Below, piece by piece: positions 1-23,854 of a DNA stretch of 64,000 nucleotides. The stretch lies in the NCBI RefSeq assembly GCF_003790525.1, contig NZ_CP033635.1; one strand, written 5' to 3'. The first letter of the stretch is position 1. Each line of letters opens with the position of its first letter. The notes beneath the pieces were generated by a model that had not been told where the DNA came from, made no database searches, and was given only the letters and a program-made list of their open reading frames with translations. The DNA is from Escherichia coli. Lineage in GTDB: Bacteria > Pseudomonadota > Gammaproteobacteria > Enterobacterales > Enterobacteriaceae. The translations under genes and the position numbers were made by a program.

Positions 1-538
<538 letters not shown>

Positions 539-556
539 TCTCGATTTATATCGAAC

Positions 557-580
557 AAAGGGCCTGCGGGCCCTTTTTTC
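557..580 (+). terminator. Rho-independent terminator of ompC (GGGCC-loop-GGCCC hairpin followed by a T-run)
   Basis: GC hairpin aaagggcctgcgggccc followed by tttttt, directly after the ompC stop. Confidence 0.6.
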
Positions 581-649
581 ATTGTTTTCAGCGTACAAAC
601 ACAGTTTTTTGGTGTACTCTTGCGACCGTTCGCATGAGGATAATCACGT

Positions 650-1705
650 ATGGAAATAAGCTTTACCCGCGTGGCACTGCTGGCTGCCGCGCTCTTCTTT
701 GTTGGTTGCGATCAAAAACCACAACCCGCCAAAACCCACGCTACTGAAGTTACCGTTCTTGAAGGCAAAACCATGGGTACCTTCTGGCGTGCCAGCATCC
801 CGGGCATTGATGCCAAACGCAGTGCCGAACTTAAAGAAAAGATTCAGACCCAGCTGGACGCCGACGATCAGCTGCTTTCGACCTATAAAAAAGATTCCGC
901 GCTGATGCGCTTTAACGACTCGCAAAGTTTGTCGCCGTGGCCGGTAAGTGAAGCGATGGCCGATATCGTCACCACCTCGCTGCGCATTGGCGCAAGGACC
1001 GATGGTGCGATGGATATAACCGTCGGGCCGCTGGTGAATCTGTGGGGCTTTGGCCCGGAACAACAGCCGGTTCAAATTCCGAGTCAGGAACAGATCGATG
1101 CGATGAAAGCCAAAACCGGCTTACAGCACCTGACGGTGATTAATCAGTCCCACCAGCAATATCTGCAAAAAGACCTGCCGGATTTATATGTCGATCTCTC
1201 TACCGTCGGTGAAGGTTATGCGGCGGATCATCTGGCACGCTTGATGGAGCAGGAAGGGATTTCCCGCTATCTGGTGTCGGTGGGCGGCGCGCTGAACAGC
1301 CGTGGTATGAACGGTGAAGGCCAGCCGTGGCGAGTGGCGATTCAAAAACCAACCGATAAAGAAAACGCGGTTCAGGCGGTGGTGGATATCAACGGCCACG
1401 GTATCAGCACCTCCGGCAGCTATCGCAACTATTACGAACTGGACGGCAAACGTCTTTCTCATGTTATCGATCCGCAAACCGGGCGTCCCATTGAACATAA
1501 TCTGGTATCCGTGACGGTGATTGCCCCGACGGCGCTGGAAGCCGACGCCTGGGACACAGGTTTGATGGTGCTCGGGCCGGATAAAGCCAAAGAAGTTGTT
1601 CGCCGGGAAGGGCTGGCGGTCTATATGATCACCAAAGAGGGCGATAGCTTTAAAACCTGGATGTCGCCGCAGTTTAAAAGCTTCCTTATCAGCGAAAAAA
1701 ATTAA
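650..1705 (+). CDS. apbE: FAD:protein FMN transferase (ApbE/Ftp family lipoprotein)
   Basis: 351-aa ORF with lipoprotein signal and lipobox (LLAAALFFVGC); recognised as E. coli ApbE. Confidence 0.93.
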   Translation: MEISFTRVALLAAALFFVGCDQKPQPAKTHATEVTVLEGKTMGTFWRASIPGIDAKRSAELKEKIQTQLDADDQLLSTYKKDSALMRFNDSQSLSPWPVSEAMADIVTTSLRIGARTDGAMDITVGPLVNLWGFGPEQQPVQIPSQEQIDAMKAKTGLQHLTVINQSHQQYLQKDLPDLYVDLSTVGEGYAADHLARLMEQEGISRYLVSVGGALNSRGMNGEGQPWRVAIQKPTDKENAVQAVVDINGHGISTSGSYRNYYELDGKRLSHVIDPQTGRPIEHNLVSVTVIAPTALEADAWDTGLMVLGPDKAKEVVRREGLAVYMITKEGDSFKTWMSPQFKSFLISEKN

Positions 1706-1745
1706 AGCGCAAGATTGTTGGTTTTTGCGCGATGGTGACCGGGCA
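1697..1745 (+). promoter_or_regulatory. ada promoter region with Ada box (AAAGCGCA) overlapping the apbE stop codon
   Basis: Sequence aaaaattAAAGCGCAagattgttggtttttgcgcgatgg about 70 bp upstream of the ada start; the Ada-box consensus is read by eye. Confidence 0.45.
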
Positions 1746-1778
1746 GACTAAAGGCTATCCTTAACCAGGGAGCTGATT

Positions 1779-2843
1779 ATGAAAAACGCCACATGCTTAA
1801 CAGACGATCAACGCTGGCAATCTGTCTTAGCCCGCGACCCGAATGCCGACGGCGAATTCGTTTTCGCCGTGCGCACCACAGGTATCTTTTGCCGTCCGTC
1901 TTGCCGCGCCAGACATGCCTTGCGGGAAAATGTCTCCTTCTACGCAAATGCCAGCGAGGCACTCGCCGCCGGATTTCGCCCCTGCAAACGTTGTCAGCCA
2001 GACAAAGCCAATGCCCAGCAACATCGCCTTGATAAAATTACCCACGCCTGCCGACTTCTGGAACAGGAAACGCCTGTAACGCTGGAAGCCTTAGCCGACC
2101 ATGTGGCGATGAGTCCGTTCCATCTGCATCGGTTGTTTAAAGCGACTACCGGAATGACGCCTAAAGCCTGGCAACAGGCCTGGCGCGCTCGCCGTTTGCG
2201 CGAATCGCTGGCGAAAGGGGAGAGCGTGACGACGTCTATTCTTAACGCCGGATTCCCCGACAGCAGCAGTTACTACCGCAAAGCTGACGAAACGCTGGGC
2301 ATGACGGCTAAACAATTCCGTCACGGTGGCGAAAATCTGGCGGTGCGTTACGCGCTGGCTGATTGTGAGCTGGGCCGTTGCCTGGTGGCAGAAAGTGAGC
2401 GGGGGATTTGCGCGATATTACTGGGCGATGATGACGCGACACTAATCAGCGAGTTACAGCAGATGTTTCCCGCTGCCGACAGCGCGCCTGCCGATCTGAC
2501 GTTTCAGCAACATGTGCGTGAAGTGATCGCCAGCCTCAATCAACGCGATACGCCGCTGACGTTACCGCTGGACATTCGCGGCACTGCTTTTCAGCAACAA
2601 GTCTGGCAGGCACTGCGCACGATACCTTGCGGTGAAACCGTCAGTTATCAGCAACTGGCTAATGCCATCGGCAAACCGAAAGCGGTACGGGCTGTTGCCA
2701 GCGCCTGTGCCGCCAACAAGCTAGCTATCGTTATACCTTGTCATCGGGTGGTCCGTGGTGATGGCACACTTTCCGGTTACCGCTGGGGCGTGTCGCGCAA
2801 AGCGCAACTGCTGCGCCGCGAAGCTGAGAATGAGGAGAGGTAA
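1779..2843 (+). CDS. ada: Bifunctional transcriptional activator / O6-methylguanine-DNA methyltransferase Ada
   Basis: 354-aa ORF; N-terminal Cys-rich methylphosphotriester acceptor region (FCRPSCRARH...PCKRCQP), AraC-type HTH, C-terminal PCHRV active-site motif. Confidence 0.95.
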   Translation: MKNATCLTDDQRWQSVLARDPNADGEFVFAVRTTGIFCRPSCRARHALRENVSFYANASEALAAGFRPCKRCQPDKANAQQHRLDKITHACRLLEQETPVTLEALADHVAMSPFHLHRLFKATTGMTPKAWQQAWRARRLRESLAKGESVTTSILNAGFPDSSSYYRKADETLGMTAKQFRHGGENLAVRYALADCELGRCLVAESERGICAILLGDDDATLISELQQMFPAADSAPADLTFQQHVREVIASLNQRDTPLTLPLDIRGTAFQQQVWQALRTIPCGETVSYQQLANAIGKPKAVRAVASACAANKLAIVIPCHRVVRGDGTLSGYRWGVSRKAQLLRREAENEER

Positions 2844-3493
2844 TGTTGGATCTGTTTGCCGATGCTGAACCGTGGCAAGAGCCACTGGCGGCTGGTGCGG
2901 TAATTTTACGGCGTTTCGCTTTTAACGCTGCGGAGCAACTAATCCGCGATATTAATGACGTTGCCAGCCAGTCGCCGTTTCGCCAGATGGTCACTCCAGG
3001 CGGATATACCATGTCGGTGGCGATGACCAACTGTGGGCATCTGGGCTGGACGACCCATCGGCAAGGTTATCTCTATTCGCCCATTGATCCGCAAACAAAT
3101 AAACCGTGGCCCGCCATGCCGCAGAGTTTTCATCATTTATGTCAACGTGCGGCTACGGCGGGGGGCTATCCAGATTTCCAGCCAGATGCCTGTTTGATCA
3201 ACCGCTACGTTCCTGGCGCGAAACTGTCGCTGCATCAGGATAAAGACGAACCGGATCTGCGCGCGCCAATTGTTTCTGTTTCTCTGGGCTTACCCGCGAT
3301 TTTTCAATTTGGCGGCCTGAAACGAAATGATCCGCTAAAAAGATTGTTGCTGGAACATGGCGATGTGGTGGTATGGGGCGGTGAATCGCGGCTGTTTTAT
3401 CATGGCATTCAACCGTTGAAAGCGGGGTTTCATCCACTCGCCGGCGACTGCCGCTACAACCTGACATTCCGTCAGGCAGGTAAAAAAGAATAA
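2843..3493 (+). CDS. alkB: Alpha-ketoglutarate/Fe(II)-dependent DNA dioxygenase AlkB
   Basis: 216-aa ORF, start overlaps the ada stop by 1 nt (translational coupling); contains the LHQDKDE motif. Confidence 0.95.
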   Translation: MLDLFADAEPWQEPLAAGAVILRRFAFNAAEQLIRDINDVASQSPFRQMVTPGGYTMSVAMTNCGHLGWTTHRQGYLYSPIDPQTNKPWPAMPQSFHHLCQRAATAGGYPDFQPDACLINRYVPGAKLSLHQDKDEPDLRAPIVSVSLGLPAIFQFGGLKRNDPLKRLLLEHGDVVVWGGESRLFYHGIQPLKAGFHPLAGDCRYNLTFRQAGKKE

Positions 3494-19212: not shown

Positions 19213-20261
19213 GGTTTTTATTGGGCGTGCTGATGCTGATGATCTCCGGCTCAGCGCTGGCGACCATCGACGTGTTGCAGTTTAAGGATGAAGCGCAGGA
19301 GCAGCAGTTCCGCCAACTCACTGAAGAACTACGCTGCCCGAAATGCCAGAACAACAGCATTGCCGATTCCAACTCGATGATTGCCACCGACCTGCGCCAG
19401 AAAGTGTATGAACTGATGCAGGAAGGTAAAAGTAAGAAAGAGATTGTCGATTATATGGTGGCGCGTTACGGCAACTTCGTCACTTACGATCCGCCGTTAA
19501 CGCCGCTGACCGTGCTGCTGTGGGTGCTTCCGGTAGTGGCTATTGGCATTGGCGGTTGGGTCATTTACGCCCGTTCGCGGCGTCGGGTACGCGTGGTGCC
19601 GGACGCGTTTCCTGAACAAAGCGTGCCGGAAGGTAAGCGTGCCGGATATATTGTTTATCTGCCGGGTATTGTGGTGGCGTTAATTGTGGCTGGCGTCAGC
19701 TACTACCAGACGGGCAATTATCAGCAGGTGAAAATCTGGCAGCAGGCCACGGCACAGGCTCCGGCGTTACTGGACAGGGCGCTGGATCCGAAAGCCGATC
19801 CGCTCAACGAAGAAGAGATGTCGCGCCTGGCGCTGGGGATGCGTACTCAACTGCAAAAAAATCCGGGAGATATAGAAGGCTGGATTATGTTGGGCCGCGT
19901 TGGCATGGCGCTGGGTAACGCCAGTATTGCCACCGATGCATACGCTACTGCATATCGCCTCGATCCGAAGAACAGTGATGCGGCGCTCGGATACGCTGAA
20001 GCGTTGACACGTTCATCTGATCCCAACGACAACCGCCTGGGTGGTGAACTGCTACGCCAGTTGGTGAGAACTGACCACAGCAATATCCGTGTGTTAAGCA
20101 TGTATGCGTTTAATGCCTTTGAGCAGCAGCGATTTGGCGAAGCCGTTGCCGCGTGGGAGATGATGTTGAAACTCTTACCTGCCAATGATACTCGCCGTGC
20201 GGTGATTGAACGTAGTATCGCGCAGGCGATGCAACATTTGTCGCCGCAGGAGAGTAAATAA
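19209..20261 (+). CDS. ccmH: Cytochrome c-type biogenesis protein CcmH (fused CcmH/CcmI type)
   Basis: 350-aa ORF; LRCPKCQ motif and TPR-like C-terminal region. Confidence 0.94.
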   Translation: MRFLLGVLMLMISGSALATIDVLQFKDEAQEQQFRQLTEELRCPKCQNNSIADSNSMIATDLRQKVYELMQEGKSKKEIVDYMVARYGNFVTYDPPLTPLTVLLWVLPVVAIGIGGWVIYARSRRRVRVVPDAFPEQSVPEGKRAGYIVYLPGIVVALIVAGVSYYQTGNYQQVKIWQQATAQAPALLDRALDPKADPLNEEEMSRLALGMRTQLQKNPGDIEGWIMLGRVGMALGNASIATDAYATAYRLDPKNSDAALGYAEALTRSSDPNDNRLGGELLRQLVRTDHSNIRVLSMYAFNAFEQQRFGEAVAAWEMMLKLLPANDTRRAVIERSIAQAMQHLSPQESK

Positions 20262-20263
20262 AA

Positions 20264-20299
20264 AGAGGCCCGATGGTGATGCCATCGGGCTATTTTTAT
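20264..20299. terminator. Bidirectional Rho-independent terminator shared by ccmH (+) and narP (-)
   Basis: Hairpin gcccgatgg-loop-ccatcgggc flanked by an A-run upstream and a T-run downstream, between the convergent ccmH and narP ends. Confidence 0.55.
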
Positions 20300-20943
20300 T
20301 GTGCCCCGCGTTGTTGCAGGAACAGAATGGTGGCCGCCACGCGTGAGCGGACATTGAGTTTACGCAGCAGATTGCGAATGTGTACTTTTACTGTCTGCTC
20401 GGAAATATTCAACACCGAGGCAATCTGTTTATTTGACAGCCCCTGTGCCAGCTCGTGCAGAACATCCAGCTCGCGCTCCGTCAGCACGCTGAAGGGATCT
20501 TCTTCTGCGCCAAACATTTCACGTTCACGTAAGTACTGATTGACGCGTTCGCTAAAGACTTTGCTGCCTTTCGCTCCGGCACGAATCGCTTCCAGCAACA
20601 CTTCCGGGTCGCTGTCTTTCAACAGATAACCGTCTGCGCCTGCGTCTATCAGCGCAAAGACATCGCTGGAGGCATCTGATACGGTCAGGATAATAATTTG
20701 CGCGGTAACGCCATCCCTGCGCAAGGCATTGAGGGTATCCAGGCCACTCATACCTTTCATATTGAGATCCAGTAAGATCACGTCGATATCCAGCCTATTC
20801 GCCAGATCGATCGCGCTCGCGCCGTCGCCCGCTTCGGCGACCACTTCAAAGCCAGGATCAAGCTCCAGTAACTGACGAACACCGCGTCGCATAAGTGGAT
20901 GATCATCCACAATCATCACCTGAAAAGGCGTTGCTTCAGGCAT
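20296..20943 (-). CDS. narP: Nitrate/nitrite response regulator NarP (receiver + LuxR-type HTH)
   Basis: ORF 20296..20973 trimmed to MPEATPFQVMIVDDHPLMRRG (215 aa); receiver domain and C-terminal LuxR/FixJ HTH. Confidence 0.94.
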   Translation of the reverse strand: MPEATPFQVMIVDDHPLMRRGVRQLLELDPGFEVVAEAGDGASAIDLANRLDIDVILLDLNMKGMSGLDTLNALRRDGVTAQIIILTVSDASSDVFALIDAGADGYLLKDSDPEVLLEAIRAGAKGSKVFSERVNQYLREREMFGAEEDPFSVLTERELDVLHELAQGLSNKQIASVLNISEQTVKVHIRNLLRKLNVRSRVAATILFLQQRGAQ

Positions 20944-21262
20944 AGTAGTCTCCTGAGGTTTTATTAGAATCATTATGTTTGAGCGTAGCGTTGGTAACGC
21001 TACCAGGCGCGTGAATGTTACCCCATTTTATGTATGGACATGTAGTGAAAACTACAACCTTGTCGTTCGCTTTGGCATCATTTTCATTATAAAGACGGAA
21101 TTTTGCATCAGCTTCTCATCAAGAAAAACAACTAAAAAATCAATCACAATACTTGTGCATTTCTTTAAACAGTTTTTAAAAACTGACTCCGGGTATGGAG
21201 CTATGGGTATTTTCTTTACCCAATGCTTTTAACAGCAATTAATTTCATAGGATGAAAGCTCA

Positions 21263-23854
21263 ATGCATCAATCTGGTTCTGTTTCTCTTTGTCGTTCCGC
21301 AATATCTGTTCTGGTGGCTACAGCGTTATATTCACCCATAGCATTGGCATCAACAGTTGAGTATGGTGAGACAGTTGATGGTGTTGTCCTGGAAAAAGAT
21401 ATCCAGCTGGTTTATGGGACCGCCAATAATACGAAAATCAATCCTGGCGGAGAACAGCATATTAAAGAATTTGGTATAAGTAGTAATACTGAAATTAACG
21501 GCGGGTATCAGTACATTGAAATGAATGGCACCGCAGAATACTCAGTATTAAATGATGGTTATCAAATTGTTCAAATGGGTGGCGCGGCAAACCAGACTAC
21601 CCTCAATAATGGTGTGCTACAGGTTTATGGCGCGGCGAATGAACCTACGATTAAAGGCGGGCGCTTAATCGTTGAAAAAGATGGGGGGACCGTCTTTGCC
21701 GCTATCGAAAAGGGAGGACTACTGGAGGTTAAAGAGGGGGGATTTGCGCTTGCGGTAGATCAGAAAGCAGGCGGTGCGATTAAAACAACCACGCGGGCCA
21801 TGGAGGTATTCGGAACAAACCGTCTCGGTCAGTTCGATATCAAGAATGGTATTGCTAATAATATGCTGTTGGAAAACGGCGGAAGTTTGCGAGTTGAAGA
21901 AAATGACTTCGCTTATAATACCACTGTGGATAATGGCGGCTTACTGGAGGTTATGGATGGCGGGACTGCAACTGGCGTTGATAAAAAAGCAGGCGGAAAA
22001 TTAATTGTCTCAACGAATGCGCTGGAAGTGAGTGGTACAAACAGTAAAGGCCAATTTAGTATAAAAGATGGTGTGTCAAAAAATTATGAACTGGATGATG
22101 GTTCCGGGCTCATTGTTATGGAGGACACGCAGGCCATTGATACTATCCTTGATGAGCATGCCACTATGCAATCGCTGGGAAAGGATACTGGTACGAGAGT
22201 GCAGGCAAATGCGGTATATGATCTCGGTCGATCAGATCAGAATGGAAGTATCACGTATTCCTCTAAAGCCATCTCTGAAAATATGGTTATCAACAATGGC
22301 CGCGCTAATGTCTGGGCTGGCACAATGGTTAACGTTTCAGTCAGAGGGAATGATGGCATTCTTGAGGTCATGAAGCCGCAAATAAATTATGCACCCGCTA
22401 TGTTGGTGGGTAGTGTCGTGGTTTCTGAGGGCGCTTCTTTAAGAACGCATGGTGCCGTGGATACCAGCAAAGCGGATGTTTCGCTCGATGGTAGCTCATG
22501 GACCATCATTGCCGATATCACTACGACGAACCAAAACACCCTCCTCAACTTAGCCAACCTTGCGATGTCTGACGCAAATGTGATTATGATGGATGAGCCA
22601 GTGACTCGTTCATCAGTGACGGCAAGTGCGGAAAATTTCATTACGTTGACCACCAATACCCTGTCGGGAAACGGCAATTTTTATATGCGTACCGATATGG
22701 CTAATCATCAGAGCGATCAGCTCAACGTCACCGGTCAGGCAACAGGTGATTTCAAAATATTCGTTACGGACACCGGTGCCAGCCCGGCAGCAGGAGATAG
22801 CCTTACACTGGTAACGACGGGCGGCGGTGATGCTGCATTTACGTTGGGCAATGCCGGAGGCGTTGTTGATATCGGTACGTATGAATATACCTTGCTGGAT
22901 AATGGCAACCATAGCTGGAGTCTGGCAGAGAATCGCGCGCAAATTACCCCTTCAACCACTGATGTGCTGAATATGGCGGCAGCACAACCGCTGGTATTTG
23001 ATGCAGAACTGGACACCGTGCGTGAGCGTCTTGGTAGCGTAAAAGGCGTTAATTACGATACGGCGATGTGGAGTTCGGCAATTAACACCCGCAACAACGT
23101 GACCACTGATGCGGGAGCTGGCTTTGAGCAAACATTGACGGGGCTGACGCTTGGTATCGATAGCCGTTTCTCCCGTGAAGAAAGCAGTACAATTCGCGGC
23201 TTGTTCTTTGGTTACTCTCATTCTGATATTGGTTTTGATCGCGGCGGCAAAGGCAATATCGATAGCTATACCCTGGGGGCTTATGCCGGTTGGGAGCATC
23301 AGAACGGTGCCTATGTTGATGGGGTGGTGAAAGTTGACCGTTTTGCCAACACCATCCATGGCAAGATGAGTAATGGGGCAACAGCGTTTGGCGATTACAA
23401 TAGTAACGGCGCGGGTGCTCATGTCGAGAGCGGGTTCCGTTGGGTTGACGGATTGTGGAGTGTTAGACCTTATCTGGCCTTTACCGGCTTTACCACAGAT
23501 GGTCAGGACTACACGTTATCAAACGGCATGCGCGCGGATGTGGGAAATACCCGCATATTACGGGCTGAAGCGGGAACGGCGGTAAGCTATCACATGGACC
23601 TGCAAAACGGTACGACGCTGGAACCCTGGCTGAAAGCCGCCGTACGTCAGGAATACGCCGATTCTAACCAGGTGAAAGTTAATGACGATGGCAAATTTAA
23701 TAATGATGTGGCTGGAACCCGTGGCGTTTATCAGGCTGGGATAAGGTCATCGTTTACCCCGACGTTAAGCGGTCATTTGTCAGTCAGTTATGGCAATGGC
23801 GCAGGGGTAGAATCGCCGTGGAATACTCAGGCGGGTGTGGTCTGGACGTTCTGA
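21263..23854 (+). CDS. yejO: Autotransporter (type Va) adhesin-like outer-membrane protein YejO
   Basis: 863-aa ORF; N-terminal signal-like region, repetitive Gly/Asn-rich passenger with about 60-aa internal repeats, C-terminal beta-barrel translocator ending ...AGVVWTF. Confidence 0.85.
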   Translation: MHQSGSVSLCRSAISVLVATALYSPIALASTVEYGETVDGVVLEKDIQLVYGTANNTKINPGGEQHIKEFGISSNTEINGGYQYIEMNGTAEYSVLNDGYQIVQMGGAANQTTLNNGVLQVYGAANEPTIKGGRLIVEKDGGTVFAAIEKGGLLEVKEGGFALAVDQKAGGAIKTTTRAMEVFGTNRLGQFDIKNGIANNMLLENGGSLRVEENDFAYNTTVDNGGLLEVMDGGTATGVDKKAGGKLIVSTNALEVSGTNSKGQFSIKDGVSKNYELDDGSGLIVMEDTQAIDTILDEHATMQSLGKDTGTRVQANAVYDLGRSDQNGSITYSSKAISENMVINNGRANVWAGTMVNVSVRGNDGILEVMKPQINYAPAMLVGSVVVSEGASLRTHGAVDTSKADVSLDGSSWTIIADITTTNQNTLLNLANLAMSDANVIMMDEPVTRSSVTASAENFITLTTNTLSGNGNFYMRTDMANHQSDQLNVTGQATGDFKIFVTDTGASPAAGDSLTLVTTGGGDAAFTLGNAGGVVDIGTYEYTLLDNGNHSWSLAENRAQITPSTTDVLNMAAAQPLVFDAELDTVRERLGSVKGVNYDTAMWSSAINTRNNVTTDAGAGFEQTLTGLTLGIDSRFSREESSTIRGLFFGYSHSDIGFDRGGKGNIDSYTLGAYAGWEHQNGAYVDGVVKVDRFANTIHGKMSNGATAFGDYNSNGAGAHVESGFRWVDGLWSVRPYLAFTGFTTDGQDYTLSNGMRADVGNTRILRAEAGTAVSYHMDLQNGTTLEPWLKAAVRQEYADSNQVKVNDDGKFNNDVAGTRGVYQAGIRSSFTPTLSGHLSVSYGNGAGVESPWNTQAGVVWTF

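Follow-up and report, generated by a model that had tools for sequence, protein, structure and literature searches.

An intact yejO autotransporter gene in an SMS-3-5-like Escherichia coli chromosome with the K-12 IS5K site unoccupied

The yejO gene of Escherichia coli K-12 is a pseudogene inactivated by an IS5K element near its start codon (PMC11005336), and the 64,000-nucleotide stretch of E. coli DNA analysed here (NCBI RefSeq assembly GCF_003790525.1, contig NZ_CP033635.1; hereafter the window) contains a copy of the same gene between narP and the tRNA gene proL. This raises the question of whether the copy in the window is intact, what its product would be, and whether the unoccupied insertion sequence (IS) site sets this strain apart. 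We are highly confident that the region is the intact chromosomal yejO of an SMS-3-5-like strain, that it encodes a type Va autotransporter of the AIDA-I/Ag43 class, and that the K-12 IS5K site is empty. The features on which this reading is built are as follows.

20944..21262, no strand: narP-yejO intergenic region, 319 bp, AT-rich and IS-free by its sequence, which must hold the uncharacterised yejO and narP promoters
21263..23854, + strand: intact yejO coding sequence, identical to the SMS-3-5 coding sequence WP_024175761.1
21326..21329, + strand: TTAT at which K-12 carries IS5K, unoccupied here and present as a single copy (comparison with MG1655)

The open reading frame (ORF) begins at the first in-frame ATG, runs for 863 codons plus a stop and has no internal stop codons, and the ORF list bears out both the coordinates and the description of an uninterrupted gene given in the initial annotation. 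Its estimate of about 320 bp for the narP-yejO interval is similarly accurate, and nothing resembling an insertion sequence lies within these 319 bp. The window does not derive from K-12. Over a 24 kb stretch (12000-36000) it agrees at 100% identity with E. coli SMS-3-5 (NC_010498.1) and with approximately twenty other complete genomes, so the match is to SMS-3-5 and its relatives, and the SMS-3-5 RefSeq record describes the same 2,592-nt coding sequence as "autotransporter YejO" of 863 aa.

A base-by-base comparison with MG1655 shows how the two alleles differ. The MG1655 record gives yejO (b2190) as a pseudogene in two pieces, with a first fragment of 67 nt, IS5K (1,195 bp, carrying insH8) and a second fragment. 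MG1655 and the window agree over the first 67 nt of the ORF, and in MG1655 IS5K sits immediately after these, within codon 23 and in the hydrophobic core of the signal peptide, flanked by a duplication of TTAT. The MG1655 junction reads GCGTTAT-[IS5K]-TTATATTC, and at the same place the window has GCGTTATATTC, with one TTAT and no IS sequence. When IS5K and one copy of TTAT are excised in silico from the MG1655 sequence, an ORF of 2,592 nt is regained, and IS5K is the sole lesion of the K-12 gene because this excised ORF carries no other stop. The excised ORF differs from that of the window at 56 of 2,592 nt and 22 aa (97.8% nucleotide identity) and occupies the same locus behind the same 319 bp upstream interval; the window lacks IS5K. 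A published account likewise places IS5 inside yejO in the direct orientation (PMC11677980). The same paper mentions CTAA and CTAG as IS5 targets, and we note that the TTAT duplication in K-12 yejO does not fit these targets (YTAR), which are the ones usually quoted for IS5.

The statement in the initial annotation that MG1655 carries an IS5 copy in this neighbourhood is therefore correct, and the copy does disrupt yejO, but it lies inside the ORF and not in the narP-yejO interval. The interval itself is 319 bp in both genomes, with a single substitution (at 21216, T in the window and G in MG1655), and is almost invariant among six aligned strains. According to the initial annotation, an uninterrupted interval in MG1655 would tell against a strain lacking the K-12 insertion; such an interval is what MG1655 has, yet the strain inference survives because IS5K sits in the ORF and not in the interval, and the empty TTAT target confirms it. 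A small inverted repeat, TGGGTA...TACCCA, lies 41 nt upstream of the ATG, and its loop contains the substituted position 21216, at which most other aligned strains also have G.

An empty site is not unusual. We surveyed 5,426 complete E. coli genomes in RefSeq, a biased sample in which the direction of the result is nonetheless unambiguous. The segment corresponding to 20800-21500 is uninterrupted in 5,006 of them, with identities from 97% to 100%, and the K-12 yejO/IS5K junction is present in 357, every sampled example of which is a laboratory K-12 derivative. At least 80% of yejO is found in 4,281 genomes when the IS-split K-12 copies are counted in, and subtraction of these leaves approximately 3,900 (about 70%) with a colinear full-length gene. 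An intact yejO is unambiguously the norm and K-12 the exception, contrary to the special status that the initial annotation had implied for a strain without the insertion, and what is concluded about YejO from K-12 cannot be carried over to natural isolates. The same counts bear on whether the uninterrupted state could be secondary, an ancestral IS5 having been lost by precise excision so that the window represents a reversion. IS5 can excise precisely, which makes this a formal possibility with no other evidence in its favour; given the empty site in over five thousand genomes, the confinement of the junction to 357 genomes, of which all those sampled are laboratory K-12 derivatives, and the single clean TTAT in the window, we consider it so improbable as to be negligible.

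We thus return to an intact gene in an SMS-3-5-like strain, whose product has the organization of a classical autotransporter.

21263..21349, + strand: predicted signal peptide (residues 1-29), with predicted signal peptidase I cleavage after A-L-A (hydropathy and the -3/-1 rule; predicted local distance difference test score, pLDDT, below 50 for residues 1-28; conservation; an upstream AGGA)
21350..22942, + strand: passenger, predicted AIDA/Ag43-type beta-helix, residues 30 to ~560 (two Pfam AIDA matches; Ag43 match at 8e-38; structural model; Foldseek match to 7koh)
22553..22927, + strand: pertactin-like C-terminal part of the passenger (residues 431-555), in the autochaperone/junction position (PF03212; matches to pertactin 1dab and Vag8 7akv)
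22949..23038, + strand: predicted linker alpha-helix (residues 563-592), the sole long helix (model pLDDT >90; aligns with barrel-plus-helix structures, e.g. pre-cleavage EspP)
23060..23851, + strand: predicted 12-stranded beta-barrel translocator (residues 600-863), ending W-T-F (PF03797, TIGR01414 and the model; template modelling score, TM, of 0.89 to BrkA and 0.82-0.86 to EspP)

Pfam finds two AIDA matches (PF16168, 9e-51), a Pertactin domain (PF03212, 3.2e-45) at 431-555 and an Autotransporter beta-domain (PF03797, 2.7e-45) at 602-841, and the NCBIfam model TIGR01414 matches at 3.7e-111. The sequence matches in the PDB are to Ag43 passengers (8e-38), Vag8, TibA, the BrkA barrel and pertactin. 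An exhaustive HMMER search of 1.84 billion cluster representatives identified 2,142 of them as relatives at E≤1e-3; outside YejO itself, even the nearest clusters are at most 46% identical. Of these relatives, 81 served as input for an AlphaFold model with a mean pLDDT of 87.3 and a predicted TM score (pTM) of 0.71. In this model residues 1-28 are disordered (pLDDT <50), the passenger consists only of short strands, mostly with pLDDT >80, and the long helix at 563-592 is followed by twelve long strands at 600-862. Foldseek comparison of the model with the PDB returns Ag43 (7koh, E=2.7e-19), the BrkA beta-domain (3qq2, TM 0.89) and pre-cleavage EspP and BAM-EspP complexes (TM 0.81-0.86; BAM, beta-barrel assembly machinery), as well as the AIDA-I transport unit, NalP, pertactin and TibA. 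The protein ends in ...AGVVWTF, an aromatic beta-signal of the kind found in type Va autotransporters, and the C-terminal barrel ending in F that the initial annotation had read from the ORF is thereby substantiated. Profiles, model and Foldseek matches agree in predicting the right-handed beta-helix passenger, helical linker and 12-stranded barrel of this type, and YejO is a textbook classical (type Va) autotransporter with an AIDA/Ag43-class passenger.

The closest relative of the YejO passenger with a solved structure is antigen 43 (Flu/Ag43; 7koh), a self-associating E. coli autotransporter; both have rungs of the AIDA type and a pertactin-like junction, and their barrels belong to one family. 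The two are only about 23% identical in the structural alignment, and YejO differs in its predicted short, classical signal peptide. The Ag43/Cah equivalog model NF033177 scores YejO at 135.4 bits against a cut-off of 1,200 bits; YejO resembles Ag43 structurally and is not an Ag43 orthologue. Nor is it an orthologue of AIDA-I, for which the corresponding model NF033176 gives 71.8 bits against a cut-off of 1,200 bits. YejO has AIDA repeats in common with the glycosylated adhesins AIDA-I and TibA, and Foldseek matches the TibA passenger and the AIDA-I transport unit, but the YejO passenger is much shorter. The 'strand-loop-strand' repeat model for heptosylation targets, TIGR04415, scores 58.6 bits (cut-off 30), and no heptosyltransferase gene of the aah/tibC type adjoins yejO, where the neighbours are narP and proL/yejM, so the arrangement typical of AIDA-I and TibA is not reproduced. 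Similarity to the Bordetella proteins pertactin, BrkA and Vag8 involves the Pertactin domain, the barrel, and in the case of Vag8 YejO residues 459-860; these belong to another genus and have different passenger N-terminal regions, and we found no evidence in YejO for their serum-resistance or C1-inhibitor-binding roles.

The passenger is internally repetitive. Self-BLASTP of the protein reports no internal repeat, but an offset self-similarity scan with 100 shuffled controls identifies a period of 74 residues, present as two copies (~131-204 and ~205-278) and superimposed on a rung periodicity of 18-19 residues. In the best 50-residue window the two copies are identical at 29/50 positions, and its BLOSUM sum is 149, compared with a maximum of 51 among the shuffles; the two units are 57% identical at the DNA level.

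21653..21874, + strand: 74-aa repeat unit 1 (residues 131-204; self-similarity at offset 74)
21875..22096, + strand: 74-aa repeat unit 2 (residues 205-278; self-similarity at offset 74)

The initial annotation had proposed internal repeats of about 60 aa, and was right as to their existence though not their size; the probable reason for the estimate is the length of the Pfam AIDA model, which has 63 positions. The allele of strain K71-77 and similar genomes is intact but encodes 789 aa with a single AIDA stretch, and it lacks exactly 74 residues (168-241; 222 bp, window 21764..21985), so that the window allele carries one extra unit. The endpoints of this difference coincide with an 11-nt sequence common to both units, AAAGCAGGCGG, at 21764 and 21986.

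Export of this protein would depend on its N-terminus, MHQSGSVSLCR-SAISVLVATALYSPIALA|STVEYG, which can be divided as MHQSGSVSLCR / SAISVLVATALYS / PIALA | STVEYG into the n-, h- and c-regions of a signal peptidase I substrate, with SAISVLVATALYS as the h-region. R11 supplies a basic residue, residues 12-22 make up a hydrophobic core (with a Kyte-Doolittle mean over 11 residues of up to 2.15), and P25 and then A-L-A at positions -3 to -1 follow. In a relative that is 69% identical overall (P0006), residues 1-31 are kept with one change while the passenger has diverged, and more distant homologues have classical signal peptides of 20-27 residues followed by the same mature start, ..TV..G.TV.GE... 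The signal-like N-terminus proposed in the initial annotation thus gains support from both rule-based features and conservation in relatives, and the Sec-type signal peptide expected of type Va autotransporters is predicted to be present on rule-based grounds. Translation from the ATG with cleavage after Ala29 is very likely.

From these features, and from established autotransporter biology, a plausible route to the cell surface can be outlined. Translation would begin at the ATG at 21263, and the 29-residue signal peptide would direct passage through Sec and be cut after Ala29. The BAM complex would then insert the C-terminal 12-stranded barrel (600-863) into the outer membrane by way of its W-T-F beta-signal, and the passenger (30 to ~560) would move out through or alongside the barrel with its C-terminal end first. 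The pertactin-like part at 431-555 would be the first to fold and would template the beta-helix, with the helix at 563-592 remaining in the pore. The exposed beta-helix, with its 18-19-residue rungs and two 74-residue units, could act as an adhesin or aggregation factor, and this adhesive function is the part of the outline that leans most heavily on analogy.

Several points weigh against this reading. The predicted cleavage site is rule-based, and one passenger segment of the AlphaFold model, residues 164-190 alone, is of low confidence; it falls in repeat unit 1 and within the unit that varies between alleles. The literature searched yielded no experiments on intact YejO, whether on adhesin activity, surface display or expression; it dealt instead with uses of the pseudogene in K-12 as a neutral site, with IS5, with remarks on prevalence and with antigen panels, and contained no functional work. 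The AT-rich 5' region, in which no consensus promoter was matched, means that yejO may be silent under many conditions. Finally, start calls by the Prokaryotic Genome Annotation Pipeline (PGAP) differ for the identical gene, with an ATG start in SMS-3-5 (863 aa, WP_024175761.1) and a start at GTG codon 18 in SC516 (846 aa, WP_023141873.1).

Were the internal GTG the true start, the 846-aa product would have a crippled signal peptide and would not be exported, and the gene would effectively be a pseudogene here. The SC516 call uses this codon, 51 nt past the ATG, and the 50%-cluster representative P0001 likewise begins MATALYSPIALA. However, a GTG start would remove the basic n-region together with most of the h-region, leaving about eight hydrophobic residues, and no Shine-Dalgarno sequence precedes the GTG; the ATG, by contrast, has AGGA 10 nt upstream. 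Residues 1-17, which such a start would exclude, fall within the N-terminus preserved in the 69%-identical relative, distant homologues have full-length classical signal peptides, and the ATG is used in the MG1655 curation and in the RefSeq records of SMS-3-5 and K71-77. We regard the GTG start as very unlikely, and only the 863-aa call from the ATG gives a plausible, exportable YejO.

A different alternative accepts the intact autotransporter as the encoded product and departs from our reading only in whether it is used: yejO could be intact yet cryptic, silenced for example by the nucleoid-associated protein H-NS acting on its AT-rich 5' region, and make no contribution under ordinary conditions. 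The GC content is 38-44% in the interval, and 38-40% across the interval and the first 300 bp of yejO, compared with 51-57% in the flanks, and a scan of the 319 bp interval for consensus sigma-70 promoters gave no match. Because of this AT-rich 5' region and the lack of a detected consensus promoter, silencing under laboratory conditions is a live possibility. Other K-12 autotransporter adhesins (YfaL, YpjA and YcgV) are reported not to be expressed under laboratory conditions (Roux et al. 2005), which counts in the same direction. The K-12 yejO transcript ranks 4501, near the bottom, in an expression ranking across 3,376 data sets, although the gene is IS-disrupted there (PMC10392735). Set against this, about 70% of complete genomes, spread over several phylogroups, keep the ORF open at 97-100% identity, and such few substitutions as were observed within the first 31 codons are synonymous without exception; it can therefore be argued that the gene is under purifying selection and hence used under some conditions. 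On balance we treat the cryptic state as a real possibility, while leaning somewhat towards a gene that is used.

The interval offers little else that bears on expression. Terminator-like hits within it are unconvincing, and no hidden RNA element or regulatory feature can be claimed there from the promoter, terminator and Rfam scans. The initial annotation had suggested that expression from the native promoter could differ from that in MG1655, for which there is no basis in the sequence, the upstream DNA being essentially identical and the K-12 coding sequence being broken instead. An 85-aa ORF at 20975..21232 within the interval was taken to be a chance ORF of AT-rich DNA.

Although intact copies prevail, yejO has been lost in other ways. 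The 3' end encoding the barrel is kept in 4,293 of the 5,426 genomes, and the ~1,130 without it (21%) have either a decayed remnant or nothing; the two that were inspected, from strains 1442 and N41, are of the B2/uropathogenic E. coli (UPEC) type. In contrast to the intact gene of the window, these remnants are ~0.8-0.9 kb long. In both, a TAA stops the frame prematurely at about codon 68, and gene nt 1934-2566 have been deleted, and the barrel with them. In DNA alignment their passenger deletions differ, extending over approximately nt 472-1476 in strain 1442 and 396-1556 in N41, which points to an old inactivation with decay continuing afterwards. A passage in PMC3426408 citing Wells et al. 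2010 places YejO in the genomes of commensal and diarrheagenic strains and describes it as truncated in UPEC, and in sequence type 131 (ST131) yejO is reported to be missing (PMC5654935). Independent breakages are also seen: strain STEC388 carries a Mu-like prophage (with Mor activator, Gp27-family, Ash and Icd-like genes) in yejO after ~nt 231-240, and IS2 lies within yejO in at least two natural isolates (strains 90-3040 and 503440), in which the annotated gene is split in two.

One speculative interpretation is that these independent knockouts, by IS5 in K-12, by IS2, by a Mu-like prophage and by the stop and barrel deletion of the B2/UPEC type, reflect recurrent, lineage-specific counter-selection on yejO, which we consider doubtful. 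If the losses were adaptive rather than neutral decay, with YejO acting for example as a phage receptor, an immune target or an extraintestinal anti-virulence factor, the intact SMS-3-5-type allele would provide a handle on the role of the adhesin. In lineages that keep yejO the length of the passenger changes by whole 74-residue units.

The substance of these findings is already known from RefSeq annotation and the literature of 2010-2024, and the allele is an ordinary one. Its importance beyond housekeeping is small, the choice between starts giving 863 and 846 aa being a minor annotation point. Since the literature searched contains no experimental characterisation of YejO, the right starting material for work on its function is an intact allele such as this one.

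The surroundings of yejO conform to the conserved order ccmH-narP / yejO / proL-yejM, in which yejO lies between narP and proL/yejM, as expected of orthologues.

20296..20943, - strand: narP, nitrate/nitrite response regulator gene, divergent from yejO and bounding the interval (ORF; narP annotation in the identical SMS-3-5 and SC516 records)
23866..23895, + strand: hairpin with a perfect 13-bp stem right after the yejO stop, with no T-tract on the + strand (RNA fold -16.4 kcal/mol)
23916..23945, no strand: hairpin between an A-run and a T-run (A7...T6; RNA fold -14.1 kcal/mol)
23957..24033, - strand: proL, tRNA-Pro(GGG), convergent downstream neighbour (ARAGORN; Rfam RF00005, 54.9 bits)
24108..25868, - strand: yejM/lapC, downstream of proL (ORF list)

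The hairpin at 23916..23945 is likely a bidirectional intrinsic terminator serving the convergent yejO and proL; neither it nor the hairpin at 23866..23895 appears in the output of a simple terminator scan. An Rfam scan of 20000-26500 finds proL and no further RNA element. Among the genomes matching the 24 kb stretch, strains CM2 and 23CRST013 are otherwise identical but contain approximately 8-9.5 kb of extra DNA that includes a gene for a DUF927-domain protein, and this may be an island at the tRNA-Pro gene (proL) adjoining yejO. A gtrIC prophage remnant in Shigella flexneri 1c similarly has tRNA-Pro and yejO as its boundaries (PMC4924310).

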